A stretch of DNA of 64,000 nucleotides, taken from IMG/VR virus record IMGVR_UViG_3300037225_000630. One strand, written 5' to 3'. The first letter of the stretch is position 1, and every line of letters starts with the position of its first letter. Of the stretch, positions 20,839-60,004 are shown piece by piece. Origin of the DNA: an uncultured virus (IMG/VR IMGVR_UViG_3300037225_000630) (lineage: Duplodnaviria > Heunggongvirae > Uroviricota > Caudoviricetes). Below the pieces are notes generated by a model. It was not told the DNA's origin. It saw only the letters and a list, made by a program, of their open reading frames with translations, and ran no database searches. Position numbers and translations under genes: made by a program.

Positions 20839-21978
20839 TTATTCATTCGCCTTGAAGCTATATACAGGCTTTAAAGTATACTTTATATCTACAGTATCCC
20901 CTATCAAATCCTGTATTTCCTCATAAGGCTTATAAGCCATTGGGGATTCATCAATAGTATCCTTAGAAACGCATGAAGTCCATATTCCCTTCATTGAATC
21001 CTCAAAGTCAGATAATTGTAATGATTTCTTTGCTACCTGCCTACCCATGATACGACCAGCACCATGAGGAGCACTGAAATTCCAGTCTGGATTGCCCTTT
21101 CCCGTGCCTATAATCAATCCATCTCGCATATTCCAAGGAATAATCACAGGCTCATTTAGCATAGCTGATATTGCTCCCTTACGGATAATTTCATGGTCAA
21201 GATCAATATAGTTATGGACAGACTCAACAGAACGACCATCACCATAGACTAAATCCATCTTCTCTTGAATCTGCTGTAATATATACTCTCGATTCTTATG
21301 AGCATAAATTTGAGCTATCATCATATCTGTCAAGTATCCTTGATAGTCCTCATCCTTTAAATACTCCAACCCATTCATGGTACCTTCAGTACCATGAGTT
21401 TTAGCCTTCGCTATAGATTGCCAGTAATTGGCAATCTTCAAACCAAAGTTACGAGAGCCTGAATGAACAGTAAGCCAGAGTAGGCCATCTTGATCCTTAT
21501 CTACCTCACAAAAATGGTTGCCTCCCCCACTCGATCCTAGTGAAGCCATAACTCGATTAAAATCCTGATCTTGCTTCTCACATATTTTTCTGACATCATC
21601 ATAGATGGAAGATTTCTTAAAATCTTTTTGAATCCATTCACCACCAGATTGAGAAGTATGTACATTGTGACCTGAAGGTACATAGGTATGAATGATGTCA
21701 TCAAGTTTCTGGAAATCTATATCCTTTTTTCCTATACATATAGAAGTGATTCCACACCCAATATCAACACCTATTAAATTTACTATTATTTTATTTGTAA
21801 GAGTTGCAGTATACCCTATGACACACCCTGCTCCTGCATGAACATCTGGCATAATACGAATTTTACTTCCAATAGAAACCTCATTATTTAGAAGAGCATA
21901 AATTTGAGATAAAGCTGACTGTTCCACATTATCATTATAAATGATAGCAGAATTGTATTTTCCACGAATTTCTAACAT
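20839..21978 (-). CDS. rtcB: RNA-splicing/repair ligase RtcB
   Basis: MPDVHAG, GVDIGCG, GGGNHF, HSGSR, HNY, RKGA, PHGAGR, DESPMAYK. Confidence 0.96.
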   Translation of the reverse strand: MLEIRGKYNSAIIYNDNVEQSALSQIYALLNNEVSIGSKIRIMPDVHAGAGCVIGYTATLTNKIIVNLIGVDIGCGITSICIGKKDIDFQKLDDIIHTYVPSGHNVHTSQSGGEWIQKDFKKSSIYDDVRKICEKQDQDFNRVMASLGSSGGGNHFCEVDKDQDGLLWLTVHSGSRNFGLKIANYWQSIAKAKTHGTEGTMNGLEYLKDEDYQGYLTDMMIAQIYAHKNREYILQQIQEKMDLVYGDGRSVESVHNYIDLDHEIIRKGAISAMLNEPVIIPWNMRDGLIIGTGKGNPDWNFSAPHGAGRIMGRQVAKKSLQLSDFEDSMKGIWTSCVSKDTIDESPMAYKPYEEIQDLIGDTVDIKYTLKPVYSFKANE

Positions 21979-22715
21979 AATAAACTCCTAATATAGGACA
22001 AAGTATTTTCTTTATCCTTTTTATATTTCTCACTCCATATAATAATAACAGTATACCCTAGTTCTGTCAAGACCTTTTCTCTTATTTTATCTTTGCTCCA
22101 AATATCTTTAGCCTTTACATTATGGTGAACAACATCTTCTTCTTGGTAACGATCAGAGTGAGCGTGCCAATATTCACCATATAATTCTATTATTATTTTT
22201 TTACTTTCAATGTAGATATCTGGTAAATACCATTTTTCAGTAGTTTTAATAGTATAGTGTTCTTGTGCTTCTGAACAAAATTGTTGTATATCATATAATA
22301 GAGATTTTTCTATTTTACTGCTATTGTAAGAAGAATGCTCATTATAGGAAATACTCCCAGACTTCCAAGATTCTTTCATAGCCTCTCTTCTTATATCTAA
22401 CTGCTCTGGGTTATCTCTATACCATTGAGTTATTCTTTCACTTTGCTCTTTTTTAAAACCCTCTCTTCGAGGTTTAGAGATAGCTTTTATTACTTTTTCC
22501 CTATACCCCTTATCTTTCCATAAATCTTTAGATATTTCTTTTAATTTTATTTTTGTAGCTTCAATAGTTTTCTTATCATGATGCTTACCATAGAAAGGAT
22601 TATTTTTTCCTGTTCGATCTCTATGGAGAGAACACTTTCCACCTTTATTACTATCTATTATTTGCTTTCCACAAATAGAACAGGTTTTCCCTAACTTATA
22701 TGACTTATTGTTCAT
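21972..22715 (-). CDS. NUMOD3 + Vsr/DUF559-like endonuclease (putative homing endonuclease)
   Basis: NNPFYGKHH; PDIY...IIELYGEYWH...D...LGYTVIIIW. Confidence 0.8.
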   Translation of the reverse strand: MNNKSYKLGKTCSICGKQIIDSNKGGKCSLHRDRTGKNNPFYGKHHDKKTIEATKIKLKEISKDLWKDKGYREKVIKAISKPRREGFKKEQSERITQWYRDNPEQLDIRREAMKESWKSGSISYNEHSSYNSSKIEKSLLYDIQQFCSEAQEHYTIKTTEKWYLPDIYIESKKIIIELYGEYWHAHSDRYQEEDVVHHNVKAKDIWSKDKIREKVLTELGYTVIIIWSEKYKKDKENTLSYIRSLLC

Positions 22716-32789: not shown

Positions 32790-34064
32790 TTATGCCTGTT
32801 CTTCTATATCGATAACCTCTTCTTCATGTGCCTTTGACTCCTTCAAGAGGAATGCTTCAGACTTCAGCTTGTAAGCCTCGATGTTCATACCCTCGATCCT
32901 GATAACGATACCCTCATCAGGGTTACCATCGCAATCTTCGGCCTTTTTTTCCAAATAATTAGCCTTCAATTCATTAATAAAATAGCTAACCCAATACTCA
33001 GGATTGGTAGGATTGGAGTATAGAGGGAAATCGGAAGCCTTGCCATAGTAGAATTCCTCTACCATAGGCACCTGAAGTTCTTCGCAGCGCTGTTTCATTG
33101 CTTGCCATGAATACTCATACACAGTACCATCAGTACCAGTAGCAGTAATCCTATAGACAGCAACTTTATACGTATTAGGTATACAACCATAACGATATCC
33201 CTTCTGGATAGCATTGCCAGAAGGGAGGAATCCCACTATCTCATAGTAGACAGTTTCACCAGCATGAAGTTTAGTTAGGAAATATTTTTTTCCAGCCTCA
33301 GTCCAGATATCTTCCTTGTAGAAGCCAGAAGTAGTAGCATCGTTCTTGACTACTGACCTGGATGCATAGAGATAATCGTACTCAGTATCCTGTATCTTTA
33401 TTCCTATACTCTTTGCTATTTTCTCCAGCAGGTTTAATTTCCTCTTTACTAGAGCATTAGCACAGATAGCTGAAGTTCCGTGTATTTTCCGACTGATACT
33501 GATTATCTGGTTAGGATTAAACTTATGTACATTTCGCAATAGTTGTGAAGTATCAATATGGAAATGAAACTGATCAGGGATTAGACGAGAAGTTTTCTTT
33601 ACTTTCCTTCCCTTCTTACCTTGAACCTGAATCTGCTTCTGTGGAGGCACATATTTGTGGCAGACATCAACACCATTAAGGGAAGTAAAACTATTCCCTT
33701 CCTCAAGATCAACATTGTAGGGCTTAAACTTGCCTACCCCTATTGCAAGCCCCAGTGAAATAGTATTTTTGAGTCTCACTACCTTTACCCGATTACCTTT
33801 GGATAAATAGCTCCCGATTGACTTAAACTCCTCCTTACCATAATCAGGAGATTGCTTATCTACTACCTTAATAAAATCTAAGTTTAATATCATATTGGAG
33901 TCAAAAAATACTACATTATTTTCTTCATAAAAATCATTTTTACCTACTACTACCTGCCCCTGCTCTATTCCCTCTAGGCTAAGTATAGCTTTGACAATGT
34001 TATCTGCTCCTACTATAGGTTCTATCCTACTAATTTTCATCACTACTGCTGTGTTATTCTGCAT
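32790..34064 (-). CDS. ATP-dependent RNA ligase (Rnl2/DRB0094-like)
   Basis: N-terminal IEPIVGADNI OB-like domain; motif I RKIHGTS; YYEIVG; DEGIVIR; YKLKS. Confidence 0.88.
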   Translation of the reverse strand: MQNNTAVVMKISRIEPIVGADNIVKAILSLEGIEQGQVVVGKNDFYEENNVVFFDSNMILNLDFIKVVDKQSPDYGKEEFKSIGSYLSKGNRVKVVRLKNTISLGLAIGVGKFKPYNVDLEEGNSFTSLNGVDVCHKYVPPQKQIQVQGKKGRKVKKTSRLIPDQFHFHIDTSQLLRNVHKFNPNQIISISRKIHGTSAICANALVKRKLNLLEKIAKSIGIKIQDTEYDYLYASRSVVKNDATTSGFYKEDIWTEAGKKYFLTKLHAGETVYYEIVGFLPSGNAIQKGYRYGCIPNTYKVAVYRITATGTDGTVYEYSWQAMKQRCEELQVPMVEEFYYGKASDFPLYSNPTNPEYWVSYFINELKANYLEKKAEDCDGNPDEGIVIRIEGMNIEAYKLKSEAFLLKESKAHEEEVIDIEEQA

Positions 34065-47843: not shown

Positions 47844-47914
47844 TGAGCCTATAGGGAATTGAACCCTAGTTCCCGTGTTTAGAGGACGGTGCTTTACCAC
47901 TGAGCTATAGGCCC
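47844..47914 (-). tRNA. amber suppressor tRNA (CUA)
   Basis: Canonical cloverleaf; anticodon arm CCGTC-CTCTAAA-CACGG (C31/C39 mismatch). Confidence 0.82.
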
Positions 47915-49526: not shown

Positions 49527-49592
49527 TTGAACTCCTTTATATATTAGTATTATTCCTCAGATTATTACCGCTAAAATTCTTACCTTTCATAG

Positions 49593-49676
49593 TGCGCCGT
49601 GATGGAGTCGAACCACCCGAGTCTATCGACACCTGATCTACAGTCAGGCCCGCTGCCACTTACGGTATAACGACGC
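49593..49676 (-). tRNA. tRNA-Tyr(GUA)
   Basis: CCTGA-CTGTAGA-TCAGG, long variable arm, A73. Confidence 0.9.
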
Positions 49677-52917: not shown

Positions 52918-52990
52918 TTGTCCCACTAGGGTTTGAACCTAGAACCTGAAAATTCAGAATCTTCCACTCTACCAGTTGAGCTATGAGACA
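52918..52990 (-). tRNA. tRNA-Gln(CUG)
   Basis: U1-A72 acceptor, GAAGA-TTCTGAA-TTTTC. Confidence 0.85.
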
Positions 52991-53655
52991 ATGAATTCTG
53001 GATAATTTTTATTTATCCACCTTCGTACCTCTGTATGAGAAAGTTTCCATTCTTTTGCTACCTTCTCTACCCATCCCCATTCTTTTTTTATAGTTAACAA
53101 AAAAGGAACCCTTTCTTTTAGGAGCCTAAGTCTTTTTTCTTCTTTAAGCTGCTCTCTCATTTGTTTACGTGCTTCAGACTCTTTCTTAAAGTTATCACTC
53201 TTTCCACAAAAGGTATCAGTTTGACTATGACAATTAGGGCACAAGAAACATAAATTTTCTATTTTATTATCATCAGAAACCCCGTTCTTATGCTCAAGCT
53301 GCAATACAAGCTTCTTTCCTTGCCATTCCCCTTCATTTCCACAAGTACATTTATAGGGTATTATTTTAGCTAATTCTTTTTTTACAGTATGTCCTTTAAC
53401 TTTACTATGCTCACAAAAAATTTCTTCAAAAGGAGTCTGTCTTCTAGAAAAAACTAATTTTCTTCCTTTTTCTTTAATTTCCCTTATTAAAATAGGATCA
53501 ATCTCTTTTTTAATAAGCATTTTATTAAATGTTCTGTAATTACCCCCTTTAGTAGGTAAACCGCATTTAATCATAACTTCTCGTAATGAATCTTCTGTCT
53601 TTAATAAATATTCAATTTCTTCTTTACTCAGAGCATATACAAAACTTATTGTCAT
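52981..53655 (-). CDS. HNH homing endonuclease in the tRNA array
   Basis: LQLEHKNGVSDDNKIENLCFLCPNCHSQT. Confidence 0.92.
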   Translation of the reverse strand: MTISFVYALSKEEIEYLLKTEDSLREVMIKCGLPTKGGNYRTFNKMLIKKEIDPILIREIKEKGRKLVFSRRQTPFEEIFCEHSKVKGHTVKKELAKIIPYKCTCGNEGEWQGKKLVLQLEHKNGVSDDNKIENLCFLCPNCHSQTDTFCGKSDNFKKESEARKQMREQLKEEKRLRLLKERVPFLLTIKKEWGWVEKVAKEWKLSHTEVRRWINKNYPEFIVS

Positions 53656-53765: not shown

Positions 53766-53770
53766 AAGTA

Positions 53771-53871
53771 CGAGCCGAGCAGGAATCGAACCTACAACAA
53801 GGTGGTTACTAAAGTACTCTCGTAAGAAAGTATTTTACAGCCACCCGCTCTACTGTTGGAGCTATCGGCTC
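53771..53871 (-). tRNA. tRNA-Asn(GUU) with 28-nt intron-like insert (53809..53836)
   Basis: GAGCCGA/TCGGCTC acceptor, G73, GGTGG-CTGT[insert]TAA-CCACC. Confidence 0.85.
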
Positions 53872-53877
53872 AAAAAA

Positions 53878-53952
53878 TGGGAAATGTAGGAGTCGAACCT
53901 ACGACCCTCTGCGTGTAAAACAGATGCTCTAAACCAACTGAGCTAATTTCCC
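53878..53952 (-). tRNA. tRNA-Val(UAC)
   Basis: TCTGT-TTTACAC-GCAGA, canonical cloverleaf. Confidence 0.95.
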
Positions 53953-54186
53953 TTATATGTCTTGTATTAACTCTCTATAGCAATCAGGACAGAACCAATG
54001 CATTTCATGATCATCAAGTATTTCAGAATTATAGGGGTCTTCTACATACTCAGTATTCGTAGCTCCACATCTTTCACAGGGATGTGGTTTATAGAAGGGA
54101 TTCCATTTAGGACCAAATTGTACATTGTCCTCCTCGTTCTCCTCATGTTCCGACTCCATAAAATCAAAATTAAGCATACTTCCTCC

Positions 54187-54621
54187 TTATCCTACTATCA
54201 TATTATGAAAGAATCCTGGTGTCAAGCGTAAAGCATTAATAATAGCTCCCATTGTTTTATTATTAAATTCGAAGGTTCTATCGGTAGCATAATCCAAATA
54301 AAGGGTTTTAGTTCTACCATCATATCCATAATAAAAAGTGCCTTCAGTGCTTTCTCCTGGCTGCATCTGCTTCTTCAATTCAGCATGAGAGGTACCACAG
54401 GAGCCTACTACGGCGTCGAATCTGCCTTGATAGGATATAAGTAGTCCCCTGCCCCAATGGGTTCCAAAGACAGGCACTGATTGGTGTGCGTCCATTATAT
54501 TAACTCCAGGGATTACCTGCTTGAAGCCAAGTTGTAATCGGGCAACCCTTAATGCTTCTTCTAATACCTCTTCTTCAATCATCATTCCTTCATCAAGTTT
54601 CAAAATGTTTTCTGTTGTCAT
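54187..54621 (-). CDS. hypothetical protein
   Basis: 144-aa ORF with ACTAATTA 3 nt upstream. Confidence 0.65.
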   Translation of the reverse strand: MTTENILKLDEGMMIEEEVLEEALRVARLQLGFKQVIPGVNIMDAHQSVPVFGTHWGRGLLISYQGRFDAVVGSCGTSHAELKKQMQPGESTEGTFYYGYDGRTKTLYLDYATDRTFEFNNKTMGAIINALRLTPGFFHNMIVG

Positions 54622-54999
54622 GTATAATTAGTATTTAGAAAATCAAAGGGAATGTTGAAATAACTTGCATTCTTTTAATTGGATCTATAGCTCTAAATGC
54701 TATATCATATGCGTATTGTTCTAACATAATAGAACCCTCTATATTTTTTTGAAAAGAATATAGTGATTCTCGCTGTCCAATAACTGTTTCAGAATAGTCA
54801 AAACCTTGTGAGCCTTTCCTACCTATAATATTAAGTTGTATACAGTCTATTATTTTAAATTCTTTTCTTTTTTGTTGCTCTTTTTGTTTTTCTTTAAGTT
54901 TTTCAAGTTTTGTTTCAAGCTCTAATATCTCTTCTTGTATTGTCATAGTCACTCCTTATCCAAAGCAGGCTCAATGCATAATAAAAACTAAAATATTAT

Positions 55000-55449
55000 T
55001 CATTTTAATTCTTTCTTAGCACGAGCTAAAGCAAATCTTTCACCTATTGCTTTTCTTTGTTCTTCAGTAAATTCTCTTTTCTTTCTTATTTTTACAGGTT
55101 TAGCTTTGATTATATTATTCTCTACTATATCAAAAATTTCTTGGAGTCTATTTAATACTAATCTTACATTTTGCCATGTAGGAGAATGGGAAAGCTCTAT
55201 ACATATATCATCACATTCTTTATTTCTATAAAGAGGGCGTAAAGACTCTCTAATACTAGGAAAGAAATCCAATGCATCTTTTTCTTTTCCAGTAATATAT
55301 AGCTTAGGTTTACCTTGGGATTGTACTGTCTTTTGTTTTCTTGATACTCTCAAAGGTTCACCATTGGCTATCTTTTCTGCTCTAGCTCTTTCTCTACCTT
55401 CTTTCATTGCTTTCTTGTGCTCATCAGTAATAATACCTTTAGGCATCAC
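55000..55449 (-). CDS. basic hypothetical protein
   Basis: 149-aa ORF with AGGAG SD. Confidence 0.65.
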   Translation of the reverse strand: MMPKGIITDEHKKAMKEGRERARAEKIANGEPLRVSRKQKTVQSQGKPKLYITGKEKDALDFFPSIRESLRPLYRNKECDDICIELSHSPTWQNVRLVLNRLQEIFDIVENNIIKAKPVKIRKKREFTEEQRKAIGERFALARAKKELK

Positions 55450-56037
55450 ATTCTCCTATTTAGAAAAAATATGAAGTAATCCTATCAATGCATAGATACA
55501 TATAACTATACCTATTATACCTATTACAATCAACAATGGACTTAACACCCACCACCAGCTCCAAGCAATAGCTTTTGTAAGTTTTAATACAACAAATATA
55601 ATAGTTAATATTGTTGTCCATGGTAAATAACAAACATTCTTTGTTTCCATTCTAAGCTCCTTATTCCTTTTCCCAAAATTTAACTTGTATGCTGTCTATA
55701 AGAACTTTCTTTGCTTGTTCCTTTATATCTTCATTAAAAGGAACCTCATTAAGAGGAATTTTAGGATAAGGATAACGTCCAGAGAGTCTATCATATCCTC
55801 GTTGAACACACCAGTGATGCCTTTTTGTTTGTTTGGATACTTCATAATATCCATCCAGGTAAAGAGTATTATTATTATCATAAAACCAAAAATTGTATTG
55901 ATACTGATGAAGATCATCAACAGGAATAATAACAGATATGTTCATTTTCTTCTCCTTGTAAAAAGTATGGTTTTATCCTCCAGCTATCTCATATATAATC
56001 TACCATATTTCATTAAAAATGTCAAGTAGAAAAGATA

Positions 56038-56067
56038 AAAAAGAGAGAGAAGGCATCCTCTCTCTCT
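56038..56067 (-). terminator. intrinsic terminator
   Basis: AGAGAGAGAG/TTCTCTCTCT hairpin followed by a U-tract. Confidence 0.75.
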
Positions 56068-56378
56068 ACTGATGCTGCTGGATTTTAGCAACCACGCCAA
56101 TATTACGCTCAGGGCCTTCAACAGACACCCATCTCAGGTTGTTCCCCTAATCCTTGGTAAGGACTCGACCTCTCCACCCAGCAGCACTAGTCGTTCGCAG
56201 CAATCCCATATCCACCCTCTAGATTAGGTAGGTAATAATAGTATGGGAACTATTCCCGTAGGGTTGGACTTAGCCCTAATAAATATGGTACTTATAGTCA
56301 ATAGCATGGCCTTATGCCTCGTACAAGCTACAACCCTATAAAGAACTTAACTAATACAATCCCTCACTATTTACCTCC

Positions 56379-56906
56379 TTACGCCTGAAACATTTTAACC
56401 CTATGGGAGCGGTCAATCATTTGGGTGATGGCTTCTCTCATATAGCTGTTCAGAGGGCGATCCCATGGATGAGTAAGCCATGATGCTACTTTGAAAGTTC
56501 CATTGACTGCCATTTCAATAGCCCTACGAAGTCCTTCTTCTCTATCGAAGGAAGGAACCGGAATCTCACTAGTTGCATCCCAGTTAGTATCACGCAACAT
56601 ATCCAAGTACAGGCGATATGCTTTCGACTTGAAAATGTCTATCTTGGGGAAAGGAATTTCCTTTCCATTCTTGTCCAGCACTCCAGGCTTGTAATCTTTC
56701 ATGCGCTGCAACATTTTCTGGATTGCGGGAATTTGGTGGGGCTTAAGATACCTCTTCTCATAATCGTGTCGATGGTTTACAAGAGACCATCCAATTTTGT
56801 CTTGACCTATAGCCACGACAATTCCTATCTTGAAACCAAGGTCGTTTCTCACGTAGGTGATAATAACCTTGTTCTTTTCAAGATACTCCTTAACCATACT
56901 GTACAT
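56379..56906 (-). CDS. hypothetical protein, GC-rich codon usage
   Basis: 175-aa ORF, AAGGAG SD, upstream TTGACT/TATACT promoter. Confidence 0.75.
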   Translation of the reverse strand: MYSMVKEYLEKNKVIITYVRNDLGFKIGIVVAIGQDKIGWSLVNHRHDYEKRYLKPHQIPAIQKMLQRMKDYKPGVLDKNGKEIPFPKIDIFKSKAYRLYLDMLRDTNWDATSEIPVPSFDREEGLRRAIEMAVNGTFKVASWLTHPWDRPLNSYMREAITQMIDRSHRVKMFQA

Positions 56907-56991
56907 ATTAACTCCTTAGATTAGGTAACCGTCTAGCAGTTCCTATCTATAAATAGTATACTATGGTTTTTTAAAAAAGTCAATAGGAAAA

Positions 56992-57064
56992 TAGCCGATG
57001 CCAGATTTGAACTGTGCCCTAGCATCCCAAATGCCATGTGCTGCCGGATTACACCACATCGGCT
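56992..57064 (-). tRNA. tRNA-Pro(UGG), irregular T-stem
   Basis: TGGCA-TTTGGGA-TGCTA; AGCCGAT/ATCGGCT acceptor. Confidence 0.7.
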
Positions 57065-57476
57065 ATAAATAATCTTTAGAGAAATGCTCTTTATTATGAC
57101 AATTAGAACATAAAACCTCACATTTATCAATTTCTTTTTTTATATTTTTAAGTGAATACCCTCCTCTTATCATATCTGCTATATTATTTTCTTTTATAGT
57201 ATCATCTTTATGATGAAATACCAAACAAGCCGGATGACTTTCTCCACACCGTAGACATACTTTTCCTTTTTTGTACTCCTTTAACCAGAATCTTCTACTT
57301 TCTCTATATTCTTTTTTTTGTAAAAGAATAGTGTATCTTTTGTTTATATGACGATTATGATCATAATCTTTTACACATTCCTTACACCAAGAATGTAATT
57401 TATCAGGAGTCTTTTTGGATTTTGAGAAGGAAGATATATCTTTATAAGCATTACATCTAAAACATTTCTTTTCCAT
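57063..57476 (-). CDS. HNH homing endonuclease
   Basis: CFRC, CKEC, CLRC, LVFHH...KCEVLCSNCH. Confidence 0.9.
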   Translation of the reverse strand: MEKKCFRCNAYKDISSFSKSKKTPDKLHSWCKECVKDYDHNRHINKRYTILLQKKEYRESRRFWLKEYKKGKVCLRCGESHPACLVFHHKDDTIKENNIADMIRGGYSLKNIKKEIDKCEVLCSNCHNKEHFSKDYL

Positions 57477-57496
57477 ACACAATTAGTGTTTTGAGA

Positions 57497-57578
57497 AAGG
57501 GAATGTATTCCCAAATCAGAATTCTCTAGTCAACTGATGGCCCCAAACCACCCGCTCTACTATCTGAGCTACATCCCG
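57497..57578 (-). pseudogene. degenerate tRNA-Pro(UGG)
   Basis: CGGGATG-TAGCTCAG, intact D-arm and anticodon arm, no T-arm; abuts the HNH gene. Confidence 0.6.
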
Positions 57579-57851
57579 ATATATTACCAATCTCTCTGAA
57601 GCATATGATCTTTCATAATTTGACTCTCTGGGGTTACAGGTGGCTTTACATAATTAGGATCAGCCCCCCATGCTGCTTTTGCTTTTGTTCTCTGGTCTAC
57701 AGGCACATCAATGGGAGTGCCTAACATTACATTGATTTCAATATACAGCTTAGTCAATTCCTCTGTCAAGTCCCTCTGTTGGTTTAGTCTGAGTCTAAGT
57801 AAATCCAATTTAGCTGCTATTTTGTTTACATCTATATCCATATAAATCTCC

Positions 57852-58772
57852 TTATTTCATATTAGTGCCAAGCATATGTTCTCTATTTAATCTTGATACT
57901 ATTTGTTGCTTAAAATTATTAAATGCTTGCTTATGTATAGCATCCTTTTGAGCATAGGACATTACTACATCTAATCCAGGGTCTATTTCAAATAAATCAT
58001 CTATTGTTAGATTATTCCACTCATCCTCCCCCATCATTTTCTTTCTTTGAAGTAATCCATGGATATATGCATTAAGTTCCACAGTAGAAAATATTATATT
58101 AGGAACTTTGTAATACTTAGCAGCCCTTTGATACGAAGAATCATGCCTATTTTTTATATAATTACTATTAGTAGTATATAATGTTTCATATATCCAATGA
58201 GATATTTCATGATATACTCCCGTTTGATATTCCTCTAAAGTAAAAAGTTTTTTATCTTTAGCATAAATTATATCTTGGTCAATTCTATTCATAGAACCAA
58301 TATGTCTATTAGGTACTATTGAAGTATATACATCATTAAAATCAGTAAAAATTTCATTAGAATAATACCATTTCTTCATTAAGTCATACATCACCATAGG
58401 ATAGCCAACACTAATATAATCCAAAGCACCATCATAAAACCAATTACAATATGGTATAAAATATATTGAAATAGGATGCTTTCTATGAGTCTTAGTACAA
58501 ATAGGAGAGAGTAATTCTTCTGACTTAGTTATATGCTGATACCTATAAGGCACTTGCATGATATCTAATAGTTTACTTTTATTATTGCTTATAGCAATAG
58601 AATCTAAGAGTTTTGTAAACCGAATAAAAGGTAAAGATAATATTTCTATATCTTTATCATCTATATCAAAAACTTTTTCATACAGATGTGAGTTTTCTAC
58701 AAACTCCATACAACTCATTCTTGAGCCTTCAAGTAATAATGTGTATTCTTCCTCTTCTATAAGCCTAACCAT
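57852..58772 (-). CDS. HExxH zincin-like protein
   Basis: YHEISHW...ELNAY. Confidence 0.55.
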   Translation of the reverse strand: MVRLIEEEEYTLLLEGSRMSCMEFVENSHLYEKVFDIDDKDIEILSLPFIRFTKLLDSIAISNNKSKLLDIMQVPYRYQHITKSEELLSPICTKTHRKHPISIYFIPYCNWFYDGALDYISVGYPMVMYDLMKKWYYSNEIFTDFNDVYTSIVPNRHIGSMNRIDQDIIYAKDKKLFTLEEYQTGVYHEISHWIYETLYTTNSNYIKNRHDSSYQRAAKYYKVPNIIFSTVELNAYIHGLLQRKKMMGEDEWNNLTIDDLFEIDPGLDVVMSYAQKDAIHKQAFNNFKQQIVSRLNREHMLGTNMK

Positions 58773-58797
58773 ATGTAGTTAGTGAAACTAATTATTT

Positions 58798-59244
58798 ATG
58801 GAACTACACAATCAAAAACGCTCCCCAGAATGGCATAAAGTAATGCATGATTATCTCTCTAAGCATCCAGCCTGTGAAGCTTGTGGTAAGACTGAAGCAG
58901 TTAATGTTCATCACGTTGCGTCTTTCGAACTTATTATAAATTTTGGCAGACCAGAACTTGAACTCGATGAAAACAATCTTATCACTTTATGTGAAACAGA
59001 ATCGGGTAAGCCTGAGGAGAATCACCATATTGAAATAGGACATGCAGGGGATTTCAAGAAAACAAATTTGAATGTTAGAGAAGATGCTAAGAAATATTAT
59101 GGAGAAACATTAGTCCAGCTTAAAGAGAATACTCAATTCATGGAAGAAATAAAGGCGAATGCATTGCCTCCACTAGATGAATTGACACCAGAACAAAAAA
59201 TATATTTTCAAAATTGGCTTGACATAACTTACCCTAAAAAATAA
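58798..59244 (+). CDS. HNH endonuclease
   Basis: CEACG...VHHV...PELELDENNLITLC...HH. Confidence 0.85.
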   Translation: MELHNQKRSPEWHKVMHDYLSKHPACEACGKTEAVNVHHVASFELIINFGRPELELDENNLITLCETESGKPEENHHIEIGHAGDFKKTNLNVREDAKKYYGETLVQLKENTQFMEEIKANALPPLDELTPEQKIYFQNWLDITYPKK

Positions 59245-59315
59245 TGGAGCTAGAGACTTTGACATCTCGACCTGTAGAATGCAGATCTACCGCTCTACAA
59301 CTGAGCTATAGCCCC
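59245..59315 (-). tRNA. tRNA-Ala(UGC), C33, reduced D and T loops
   Basis: GGGGCTA/TAGCTCC with G3.U70; loop TCTGCAT; T-loop GTCAAA. Confidence 0.85.
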
Positions 59316-59320
59316 TTGTG

Positions 59321-59698
59321 TTACTTTACTGCTACCTTCTTAGCCTTTACATTTCTTAGTAAGGTTTTTAATCCTATAATAATACCTACCAATGAAGCAA
59401 CAATACCAAAAATCTGATTAGCATCATCTAATAAATTCTTTACCTTCAGGTGCTTCAGCCTAAGAGCCTCAATGGCTTGTCGCTCTGCTGATACTGGTGC
59501 TGATTCTCTTGACTTTAATGATTGTAACATCATTTCTGTTTTAGCAGGAACTGCTGCCACTAAGCCTATATTTAATTTTTCTTGTACCCAAGGAACAACA
59601 TAGGGCTTTATAGCAAACACATATAAGCCTATAGCTAAGCCTACACTAATAACAATAATTTCCCATACTTCAATTACTTTCTTTTTTTTTGCTGCCAT
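59321..59698 (-). CDS. membrane protein
   Basis: Two hydrophobic segments. Confidence 0.6.
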   Translation of the reverse strand: MAAKKKKVIEVWEIIVISVGLAIGLYVFAIKPYVVPWVQEKLNIGLVAAVPAKTEMMLQSLKSRESAPVSAERQAIEALRLKHLKVKNLLDDANQIFGIVASLVGIIIGLKTLLRNVKAKKVAVK

Positions 59699-59720
59699 AC
59701 TATCCTCATATAATTAGTTA

Positions 59721-59820
59721 TGGGACTAATAGGAATCGAACCTACCACAACCGGCTTTTTCAATACTCTATTAAAAAGTATTCAAAAAGGCCGGTGCCTA
59801 AACCAATCGGCCTTAGTCCC
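59721..59820 (-). tRNA. tRNA-Lys(UUU) with 27-nt intron-like insert (59758..59784)
   Basis: GGGACTA/TAGTCCC acceptor, A73, CCGGC-CTTTT[insert]AA-GCCGG. Confidence 0.85.
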
Positions 59821-59822
59821 TT

Positions 59823-59924
59823 TGATCCTGGCCCGGTTCGAACGGGCTACCTACTGCTTCTTTATTACTCTACTGCTAAAGTAAAAAAGAGGGCAGTTGC
59901 TCTGTCCATTTGAGCTACAGAACC
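59823..59924 (-). tRNA. tRNA-Arg(UCU) with 28-nt intron-like insert (59860..59887), C33
   Basis: A20 in the D-loop; ACTGC-CCTCT[insert]AA-GCAGT. Confidence 0.85.
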
Positions 59925-59926
59925 AT

Positions 59927-60000
59927 TACCTTTGGCAGGGTTCGAACCTGTTACATCCTCTTTCGTGGAGAAGTGCTCTGTCCATATGAGCTACAAAGGC
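59927..60000 (-). tRNA. tRNA-Arg(ACG), C33
   Basis: A20; CTTCT-CCACGAA-AGAGG. Confidence 0.9.
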
Positions 60001-60004
60001 ACGA

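Follow-up and report, generated by a model that had tools for sequence, protein, structure and literature searches.

How can a working tRNA be made from a gene whose anticodon loop is interrupted by a small hairpin? The question is raised by three tRNA genes in a 64,000-nt stretch of DNA (the window) from an uncultured virus of the Caudoviricetes, IMG/VR record IMGVR_UViG_3300037225_000630. The source of the window is a peat-metagenome phage, of which ~147 kb is readable from two overlapping IMG/VR records (G001 and G002; CheckV completeness of the two pieces, 48% and 62%). An earlier reading of the DNA letters (the original prediction) held that the inserts are a family of hairpin introns, removable by one RNase III-like staggered cut and resealed by a ligase of the phage. 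The three genes are as follows.

53771..53871, minus strand: pre-tRNA-Asn(GUU), 28-nt intron at 53809-53836, junction 35/36
59721..59820, minus strand: pre-tRNA-Lys(UUU), 27-nt intron at 59758-59784, junction 36/37
59823..59924, minus strand: pre-tRNA-Arg(UCU), 28-nt intron at 59860-59887, junction 36/37; position 33 is C

Three split tRNA genes in the window phage

Examination of the sequence confirmed the three anticodon-loop inserts in their coordinates, their lengths of 28, 27 and 28 nt for Asn, Lys and Arg, and their minus-strand orientation. The common TACTTT/AGAGTA helix that had been predicted was also present, each insert consisting of 4 nt, TACTTT, a loop of 5–6 nt, AGAGTA and 6 nt. 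The motif TACTTT N3-9 AGAGTA has three copies in the window, all inside tRNAs, compared to a mean of 0.25 in shuffled sequence and three or more copies in 0 of 100 shuffles. As predicted, removal of the inserts by the 4-nt/6-nt rule left 7-nt loops with the anticodons GUU, UUU and UCU, and the tRNA bodies fit these anticodons (G73 in Asn, GGG/A73 in Lys and A20 in Arg).

All three genes were missed by ARAGORN in its default mode. With introns allowed, the program called tRNAs at 53770-53872, 59721-59820 and 59822-59925, with inconsistent intron placement and the labels Asn or Tyr, “Phe” and “Lys”. The Rfam tRNA model, with the insert included, scored the Asn gene at 46.4 bits and the Lys gene at 47.9 bits, both over its cut-off; the Arg gene was under it. 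The minimum free energy (MFE) folds of the precursors kept the cloverleaf, with z-scores of -4.88 (Asn), -5.52 (Lys) and -4.28 (Arg), and a model (R2) built without the window Lys sequence scored the Lys arm at 48.6 bits. A fourth split gene of the same phage, Leu-UAA, is located just beyond the window end (L006:3859-3972).

Architecture and covariation of the introns

The family to which these inserts belong totals 13 distinct introns of 26–29 nt, in Leu(UAA), Arg(UCU), Lys(UUU), Glu(UUC) and Asn(GUU) tRNAs. Its carriers are the peat phage, two relatives, three short contigs and six cultured T4-like Aeromonas phages. All 13 have the same build of 4 nt, six helix positions, a loop of 4–7 nt, six return positions and 6 nt, so that the spacing rule first proposed from three introns is valid throughout the family.

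The two loop-adjacent pairs, U-A and U.G, were invariant in all 13 aligned arms. The third pair from the loop was U-A in 11 arms and A-U in two, the fourth was C-G in 11 and U-A in two, and the helix beneath these four apical pairs covaried freely. Intron positions +5 and +6 pair with anticodon positions 36 and 35 of the intron’s own host tRNA, and positions 34 and 33 pair with 37 and 38. In the alignment of 13 arms, which was fitted to the model and is ungapped outside the loop, 95.7% of the 234 cells were paired; the value in shuffles was 68.1% (0 of 500 reached the observed value), and controls with a slid register had 42–53% of cells paired. The Asn intron, whose register is shifted by one, was left out of this alignment. 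Changes on both sides were found for 13 of the 18 helix pairs, including the pairs of anticodon positions 35-36 with the intron’s last two bases. An 8-arm version of the alignment was 97.9% paired, compared to 71.5% when shuffled. Three MAFFT alignments (A2, A5 and A6) were out of register and were discarded.

Each of the eight precursors that were folded had as its MFE structure a cloverleaf with a long anticodon arm (z-scores from -4.1 to -5.6). The extended arm consists of 5 + 5 + 8–9 bp (~19 bp) with one bulge, at C32, and at most one mismatch in the MFE folds. The Glu intron and that of Aeromonas phage AsFcp_4 are fully base-paired over both cut sites. What we regard as established is how the introns are built, how their helices covary, where the junctions lie, and which of the enzyme genes described below are present or absent.

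The split genes were concentrated among tRNAs with a wobble U of the kind that has an xm5U-type modification in E. coli. In the window phage, three of five such tRNAs are split, compared to one of 20 others (Fisher p 0.016), and in the relative G003 two of six are split, compared to 0 of 15 others (p 0.071). This test was post hoc and restricted to the two phages that were scanned without bias, and the preference may simply reflect U33-U34 pairing with A38-A37 to lengthen the helix.

Positions of the junctions

Every combination of 2–6 nt before and 4–8 nt after the helix was tried as an excision in nine precursors. Among those that left a 7-nt loop, only the 4/6 excision produced a purine at position 37 and an anticodon consistent with the tRNA body in eight of the nine. 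In the ninth, Asn, the 4/6 excision gives GUU, and 3/7 or 2/8 gives the Tyr anticodon GUA. We favor Asn because the gene has G73 and a short variable arm, a separate class-II tRNA-Tyr is present at 49592-49676, and the syntenic gene of a relative (L007) is Asn-GUU.

Intronless alleles fixed the junction at 36/37, since they align to the split genes with a clean gap. The tRNA-Arg of phage phiAS5, which has no intron, differs from that of phage PX29 by such a gap, the exons being identical at 34/37 and 34/38 positions, and the tRNA-Arg of cyanophage S-CAM8 aligns to the window Arg gene with a clean 28-column gap. The Asn intron is placed one base earlier in its tRNA with the distance to its own hairpin unchanged. 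The proposal that the cut may be measured from the insert has Asn at 35/36 as its sole supporting case; a scan for further 35/36 introns found only Asn.

Distribution of the intron family

One relative of the window phage (G003/L007) is 91% identical to it in one open reading frame (ORF) of the tRNA array. Its syntenic Arg-UCU, Lys-UUU and Asn-GUU genes are intronless (the last adjoins Val-UAC), and its own split genes are Leu-UAA and Glu-UUC. A third relative (L149, L154) has a split Leu-UAA with a compensatory change in the anticodon stem. Split Leu-UAA genes are also present in two short metagenome contigs (L152 and L153), the L153 intron having the same TACTTT/AGAGTA helix as the three introns of the window, and a split Arg-UCU is present on a 27-kb IMG/VR contig (L174).

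In the Aeromonas phages the split gene is Arg-UCU, located between gene 57B and tRNA-Leu. One 28-nt intron is common to Aeh1, Ah1 and avDM12, a 26-nt intron is found in PX29 and AsFcp_1, and a separate 28-nt intron is found in AsFcp_4. A further phage, AsFcp_2, was a pattern-scan match only and is outside the six that were counted. Model R2 gave one strong match in each intron-bearing Aeromonas genome (6/6, none of them seeds) and none in phiAS5. An earlier model, R1, was too Leu-specific, missed the Arg and Glu introns and was set aside.

These genes have been annotated in other ways. The Aeh1 record describes the 105-nt split gene as “tRNA-Glu, UUC anticodon”, and the PX29 record describes its split gene as a two-piece tRNA-Lys. 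Table 4 of the Aeh1 genome paper, the part of it considered here, lists for Aeh1 no Arg-UCU, one Glu-UUC and three pseudo-tRNAs (PMC1524935). The three passages on tRNAs in a review of T4 relatives make no mention of tRNA introns (PMC2993671). A full-text search of the literature found no account of this intron build or of any splicing route for phage tRNA mini-introns.

Wider searches returned few additional members. The exact motif combined with a T-loop gave 28 loci in IMG/VR, with tRNAs only in two from the window’s own contig (the three known genes). A Leu-intron pattern gave six loci in IMG/VR, genuine only in G002 and G003, and six in metagenomes, of which four were genuine. A 306-aa ORF of the tRNA array used as a query matched only two IMG/VR loci and none among metagenome contigs. 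In representative genomes of 185,579 bacterial and archaeal species there were two chance pattern matches and no intron tRNA. Among phages bearing RtcB, none of 506 tRNAs (20 array stretches from 15 records) had such an intron, and model R2 had no matches over these stretches and 48 further whole records. Three motif matches in LR745206 equaled the control count, with none in a tRNA. Based on these data the family is rare or patchy; the scan patterns were narrow, the later ones demanding U34 or Leu-UAA.

Cut geometry and candidate enzymes

With intron or tRNA position -n pairing with +n, the 5' strand would be cut between -5 and -4 and the 3' strand between +6 and +7, in each case within the duplex. 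The two cuts would be 2 bp apart and would leave 2-nt 3' overhangs on both products, a geometry derived from DNA rather than from mapped RNA ends. In the part of the study by Pertzev and Nicholson (2006) drawn on here, the products of bacterial RNase III have a 2-nt 3' overhang with 5'-phosphate and 3'-OH ends, and in a 34-nt minimal hairpin substrate a loop-adjacent distal box and a proximal box suffice for the choice of cut site (PMC1540722). The RNase III-like staggered cut of the original prediction is consistent with these products. The folds and the covariation indicated about two turns of mostly regular helix, as in an RNase III site, and the junctions derived from the 4/6 rule and the intronless alleles would place a cut on each strand with a 2-nt 3' overhang.

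The window contains genes for two ligases that had been proposed as the sealing enzyme, both of which were identified by domain matches.

32790..34064, minus strand: ATP-dependent RNA ligase with an N-terminal OB fold, candidate sealer (Pfam PF21189 and PF09414)
20839..21978, minus strand: RtcB RNA ligase, alternative sealer (Pfam PF01139, E 2e-57)

The first matched PHROG 968 “RNA ligase” (E 4.6e-49) and, under the cut-off, TIGR02306 (E 6e-9). It distantly resembles the DRB0094 type, and no structurally solved relative was found by sequence. RtcB joins 3'-phosphate or cyclic phosphate ends to 5'-OH ends, and the window phage also encodes RNA-repair-type phosphatases. In the five complete Aeromonas phage genomes (four intron-bearing and the intronless phiAS5), Rnl1- and Rnl2-type ligases were present in all five and RtcB in none. 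Of the two sealers originally named, an ATP-dependent ligase was thus retained, and RtcB is dispensable for the family. An ATP-dependent RNA ligase was present in every intron-bearing phage with a checkable genome.

Candidates for the cutting enzyme were sought in the same genomes. Neither RNase III nor EndA domains were found in the 147 kb of the window phage examined, and no phage RNase III was found in the five complete Aeromonas genomes. The EndA domain (PF01974) was absent from the three records of the window lineage (G001–G003), and controls were positive in six genomes. The peat phage and the T4-like Aeromonas phages have almost no proteins in common; five weak tblastn matches were to two homing endonucleases (one only in PX29), a dUTPase, a Nudix hydrolase and a phosphoesterase. 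No nuclease-like protein common to the peat phage and Aeh1 or PX29 and absent from phiAS5 was identified by tblastn. The occurrence of the family in unrelated phages that have no phage nuclease in common suggests that the cutting is done by a conserved enzyme of the host and the sealing by ATP-dependent ligases.

One further candidate was rejected. The product of gene 57B, which adjoins the Aeromonas intron tRNA and is named “RNA ligase” in RefSeq (L176:3555-4049; counterparts in L177, L180 and L182), was identified as the anti-CBASS protein Acb1 (PF23474, E 1e-35). It matched the 2'-5' ligase superfamily only faintly, and the gene is also present in the intronless phiAS5.

A proposed splicing pathway

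Based on these findings, we tentatively propose, with a confidence that falls somewhat short of even, that these are real protein-spliced mini-introns of an undescribed class, with the host RNase III as the cutter and a phage ATP-dependent ligase for the resealing. A protein-dependent route with an RNase III-like cut fits the anatomy best, so that the original prediction is supported in part. We infer the occurrence of splicing, the chemistry of the cuts and the identity of the nuclease and ligase from the established features above. In the precursor, the 3' part of the intron would pair with tRNA positions 33–36 and the 5' part of the intron with its 3' part, such that the 5-bp anticodon stem would run on, past the bulged C32, into a hairpin of ~19 bp. 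This hairpin would be capped by the invariant U-A and U.G pairs, usually with C-G beneath. A double-strand-specific endonuclease would then cut the 5' strand 10 nt and the 3' strand 12 nt away from the cap, both distances being fixed. The freed intron would be a hairpin whose 3' end overhangs by 2 nt, and the tRNA would keep a 7-nt anticodon loop with a nick in it. The cutter would most likely be the host RNase III, with the apical pairs in the role of the distal box. Joining of the 3'-OH and 5'-phosphate ends would fall to an ATP-dependent RNA ligase of the phage, presumably the enzyme at 32790-34064 in the window phage and Rnl1 or Rnl2 in the Aeromonas phages. We consider it possible, though more doubtful than the pathway itself, that tRNA splicing has here a third route, one that is native to bacteria and to their viruses. 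In it, mobile mini-introns would turn the anticodon arm into a duplex of two turns, which host RNase III would cut at a distance dictated by the conserved apical box and phage ligases would reseal. The original prediction also suggested that the introns might mask anticodons from anticodon nucleases or protect the genes from targeting at the DNA level.

Several observations weigh against this proposal. In the fold of the Asn precursor the 3' cut site is in an internal loop and G34 is unpaired, the PX29 helix has two mismatches at its base, and a mismatch at -3:+3 is frequent in the family. RNase III is not known to require a conserved U.G cap, and the strict conservation of this pair could mark a dedicated protein. 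RNase III is near-universal in bacteria, and its presence, like that of RtcB, is presumed in these particular hosts. The window phage genome is incomplete, so a phage nuclease could sit in the missing part. In two metatranscriptome and two DNA runs there was no RNA contig over the intron tRNAs, making these runs uninformative on splicing; the DNA contigs of the same runs carried the introns unchanged. In addition, the presence of the introns varies among close relatives and they look mobile, which would also fit a selfish insert that disables the gene.

Alternative explanations

One alternative is that a dedicated hairpin-reading endonuclease, of phage or host origin and other than RNase III, cuts the same introns out by reading the invariant cap and measuring about one helical turn. 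Such an enzyme might leave 2',3'-cyclic phosphate and 5'-OH ends, which RtcB could seal directly, or Rnl1 after healing by Pnkp. Conservation of the cap in 13 of 13 arms favors this, as sequence-specific recognition is unusual for a bacterial RNase III. So does the gene content of the window phage, which includes RtcB, several phosphoesterases and, near its tRNA array, a DSP phosphatase of the RNA-repair type. The 14-nt apex of one intron also recurs in intergenic hairpins (see below) and so may be a general recognition module. However, RtcB was found in none of the five Aeromonas phage genomes, the tblastn comparison provided no shared nuclease-like protein, and the cut sites are base-paired, whereas metal-independent RNases that leave cyclic phosphates usually cut single strands. 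We consider a dedicated endonuclease unlikely.

A different possibility is that the inserts are not spliced at all and are small hairpin cassettes of a mobile or selfish kind, or inserts that confer immunity by breaking the target of a homing endonuclease. The tRNA gene would then be disabled or repurposed, and its RNA would be a pseudo-tRNA or a tRNA-like RNA with another role. Their variable presence between close relatives, their apparent travel with ~10 nt of each exon between distinct tRNA-Arg bodies, the homing endonuclease genes that crowd the tRNA arrays and the tRNA look-alikes with larger inserts in other phages would all be consistent with this, as would the lack of Arg-UCU and the three pseudo-tRNAs in the table of the Aeh1 paper cited above (PMC1524935). 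However, the 3' end of the intron matches the anticodon of its own tRNA in five tRNA species, and removal of the insert by the 4/6 rule always yields an intact 7-nt loop with A37. The tRNA bodies are intact, as judged by cloverleaf MFE folds and by Rfam scores over the cut-off despite the insert, and the junctions, read by eye, do not fit a target-site duplication. Such features would not be expected to persist through 13 diverged versions of a dead gene. The split genes differ from tRNA pseudogenes in that the cloverleaf is kept, the loop is exactly restored and the insert covaries with the anticodon. Based on these features, we think it improbable that the inserts are unspliced cassettes.

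The location in the anticodon loop, the pairing of the 5' exon end with the 3' end of the intron and the RtcB of the window phage could also suggest archaeal-type bulge-helix-bulge introns cut by an EndA-like enzyme. In a bulge-helix-bulge, a 4-bp helix lies between two bulges of 3 nt each, and these bulges are where the cuts are made. The introns described here have no 3-nt bulges, only the bulge at C32 in an otherwise continuous helix, their junctions are at 36/37 and 35/36, and no EndA domain was found in G001–G003. Self-splicing ribozymes fit no better, as a group I intron has a catalytic core of ~200 nt or more with helices P1–P9; a length of 26–29 nt is far below this, and an Rfam scan of the window matched tRNA only. 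The continuous helix and the short length thus agree with the original prediction that the inserts are neither group I introns nor clear bulge-helix-bulge introns, and we give hardly any credence to either class.

Signs of mobility and neighboring homing endonucleases

Comparison of Aeh1 and Ah1 showed that the anticodon arm and intron are identical at 47 of 48 positions, while the tRNA-Arg flanks match at only 16/28 and 15/27. Such a pattern is what remains when a cassette is transferred together with short stretches of exon. Three Aeromonas phages (L191–L193) have, once more per genome, an exact copy of the 14-nt PX29 intron apex in an intergenic hairpin, and a reversed-pattern control gave 0 matches. 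This hairpin has a 12-bp lower stem and is placed directly after a terminator-like hairpin. The junction sequences do not fit an origin by target-site duplication or from a miniature inverted-repeat transposable element (MITE), and this explanation was dropped.

PX29 57187-57226; AsFcp_1 203477-203516; AsFcp_4 181513-181552: intergenic hairpin with the 14-nt PX29 apex
52981..53655, minus strand: HNH homing-endonuclease-like ORF (weak Pfam HNH match, E 0.0037), 115 nt downstream of tRNA-Asn
58798..59244, plus strand: HNH endonuclease ORF (Pfam PF01844, E 5e-4), ~480 nt from the Lys and Arg split tRNAs

Homing endonuclease genes are dense in the tRNA arrays, and none could be linked to the introns. 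The ORF at 52981..53655 is 34% identical to an HNH ORF abutting the split tRNA-Leu in L152; this similarity was not retained as a sign of kinship because the gene is mobile. On the minus strand, a tRNA-Pro(UGG)-like 5' half (~57535-57580) is followed by an HNH-like ORF (57063-57482) and then by a complete tRNA-Pro (56991-57065), an arrangement that looks like insertion of a homing endonuclease with partial duplication of the target. Another homing-endonuclease-like ORF (21972-22715, minus strand), with NUMOD3, I-TevI zinc finger and DUF559 matches, has a 7-nt overlap with the start of the RtcB gene.

Other observations in the tRNA arrays

Several other genes of the window array are unusual. 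A tRNA-Ala(UGC)-like gene at 59245-59315 (minus strand) has G3:U70, scored 50.5 bits with Rfam and was missed by ARAGORN; by eye, its T-loop and position 33 are unusual. ARAGORN names 59926-60001 (minus strand) “tRNA-Ser(cga)”, but this gene has no long variable arm and by eye is better read as tRNA-Arg(ACG) with C33. L007 has Arg-ACG at the syntenic place, and both Arg tRNAs of the window phage would then carry C33. A tRNA with anticodon CUA at 47844-47914 (minus strand), called “Pyl” by ARAGORN, would read TAG; readthrough of TAG lengthened the ORFs downstream of the window only slightly. At 56040-56400 (minus strand) there is an ORF-free stretch that ends in a strong terminator-like hairpin and has no Rfam family at E <= 1. 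Contigs from an RNA library match the window without difference at 56068-56342 and 55554-55822 (word depths 36.6 and 16.6), and the stretch may encode an abundant phage non-coding RNA within the tRNA array.

Inserts and elongated tRNA genes of other kinds were seen in other phages. Many tRNA-shaped genes in huge-phage arrays from IMG/VR (L129, L130, L133, L139 and L141) have inserts of 36–60 nt in the anticodon arm with a common motif ending in GGTTACTTAG, a family distinct from and larger in size than the 26–29 nt introns. The tRNA-Glu(UUC) of phiAS5 (L218:18281-18377) is 97 nt long as a result of a tandem 21-nt duplication spanning the anticodon arm. In Aeh1, phiAS5 and PX29 there are two ~120-nt tRNA-like genes each, with “introns” of 26–49 nt according to ARAGORN, which we presume may be counterparts of the T4 small stable RNAs C and D.

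Comparison with known systems

To our knowledge there are two established kinds of tRNA intron, the self-splicing group I introns and the bulge-helix-bulge introns cut by EndA/Sen. Neither fits this family, and the finding is new in kind. If the proposed pathway is correct, it would be a new RNA-processing pathway in phages, in which introns built to a ruler are cut as duplexes and sealed by a ligase. Phage RNA ligases (Rnl1, Rnl2 and the OB-fold type) would gain a routine substrate besides damage repair, and the maturation of wobble-U tRNAs (Lys, Glu, Leu and Arg) would be tied to the phage’s own enzymes. The presence of the same build in cultured phages with a culturable host opens the question to ordinary phage-host experiments. 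In addition, tRNA finders in bacterial mode miss or misname the split genes, which leads to an undercount of phage Arg, Lys, Leu, Glu and Asn tRNAs.

The archaeal and eukaryotic tRNA introns (cut by EndA/Sen and sealed by RtcB or Trl1) are similar in that cutting and sealing are carried out by proteins, the site is in the anticodon loop and the end of the 5' exon pairs with the intron. Those introns have bulges and a 4-bp stagger, whereas the family described here has no bulges and a 2-bp stagger, with junctions at 36/37 and 35/36, no EndA found and no need of RtcB in the Aeromonas phages. In T4, a break made in an anticodon loop by PrrC is healed by Pnkp and sealed by Rnl1. The sealing of an anticodon-loop nick by a phage ligase is common to T4 and to the pathway proposed here, and genes of the Rnl1 and Rnl2 types are present in the Aeromonas phages. 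However, the T4 repair follows attack by a host nuclease at one site, in contrast to the programmed double cut proposed here, which would remove an encoded insert.

The intervening sequences of bacterial 23S rRNA are excised by RNase III, and the rRNA pieces stay unjoined. They share with this family an extended hairpin in place of a loop of a stable RNA, cutting of both strands of the stem, and a patchy, mobile-looking distribution. The difference is that no rejoining occurs there, whereas a tRNA with a cut anticodon loop can work only after religation, so that a ligase step is needed. The E. coli RNase III substrate uR1.1 is also comparable, being a small hairpin with a loop-adjacent box that is cut at a set distance. 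Its products, in the portion of the study cited earlier, have 2-nt 3' overhangs with 5'-phosphate and 3'-OH ends (Pertzev and Nicholson 2006, PMC1540722); the likeness is one of geometry.

A further precedent is the group of “enigmatic” introns reported in tRNAs of Lak megaphages by Devoto et al. in 2019 (PMC6784885). As described in the part of that paper considered here, these are also short, non-group-I inserts in the anticodon loops of phage tRNAs, with variable presence and no known splicing route. Neither an architecture nor a rule for the cuts is set out there, and a tRNA-like fold is reported within one of the Lak introns (PMC6784885). The present family, compared with the Lak introns by description only, is characterized by a length of 26–29 nt, the 4/6 build, the invariant cap and the pairing with the anticodon. 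If the pathway proposed here is correct, the enigmatic phage tRNA introns of 2019 would be explained.

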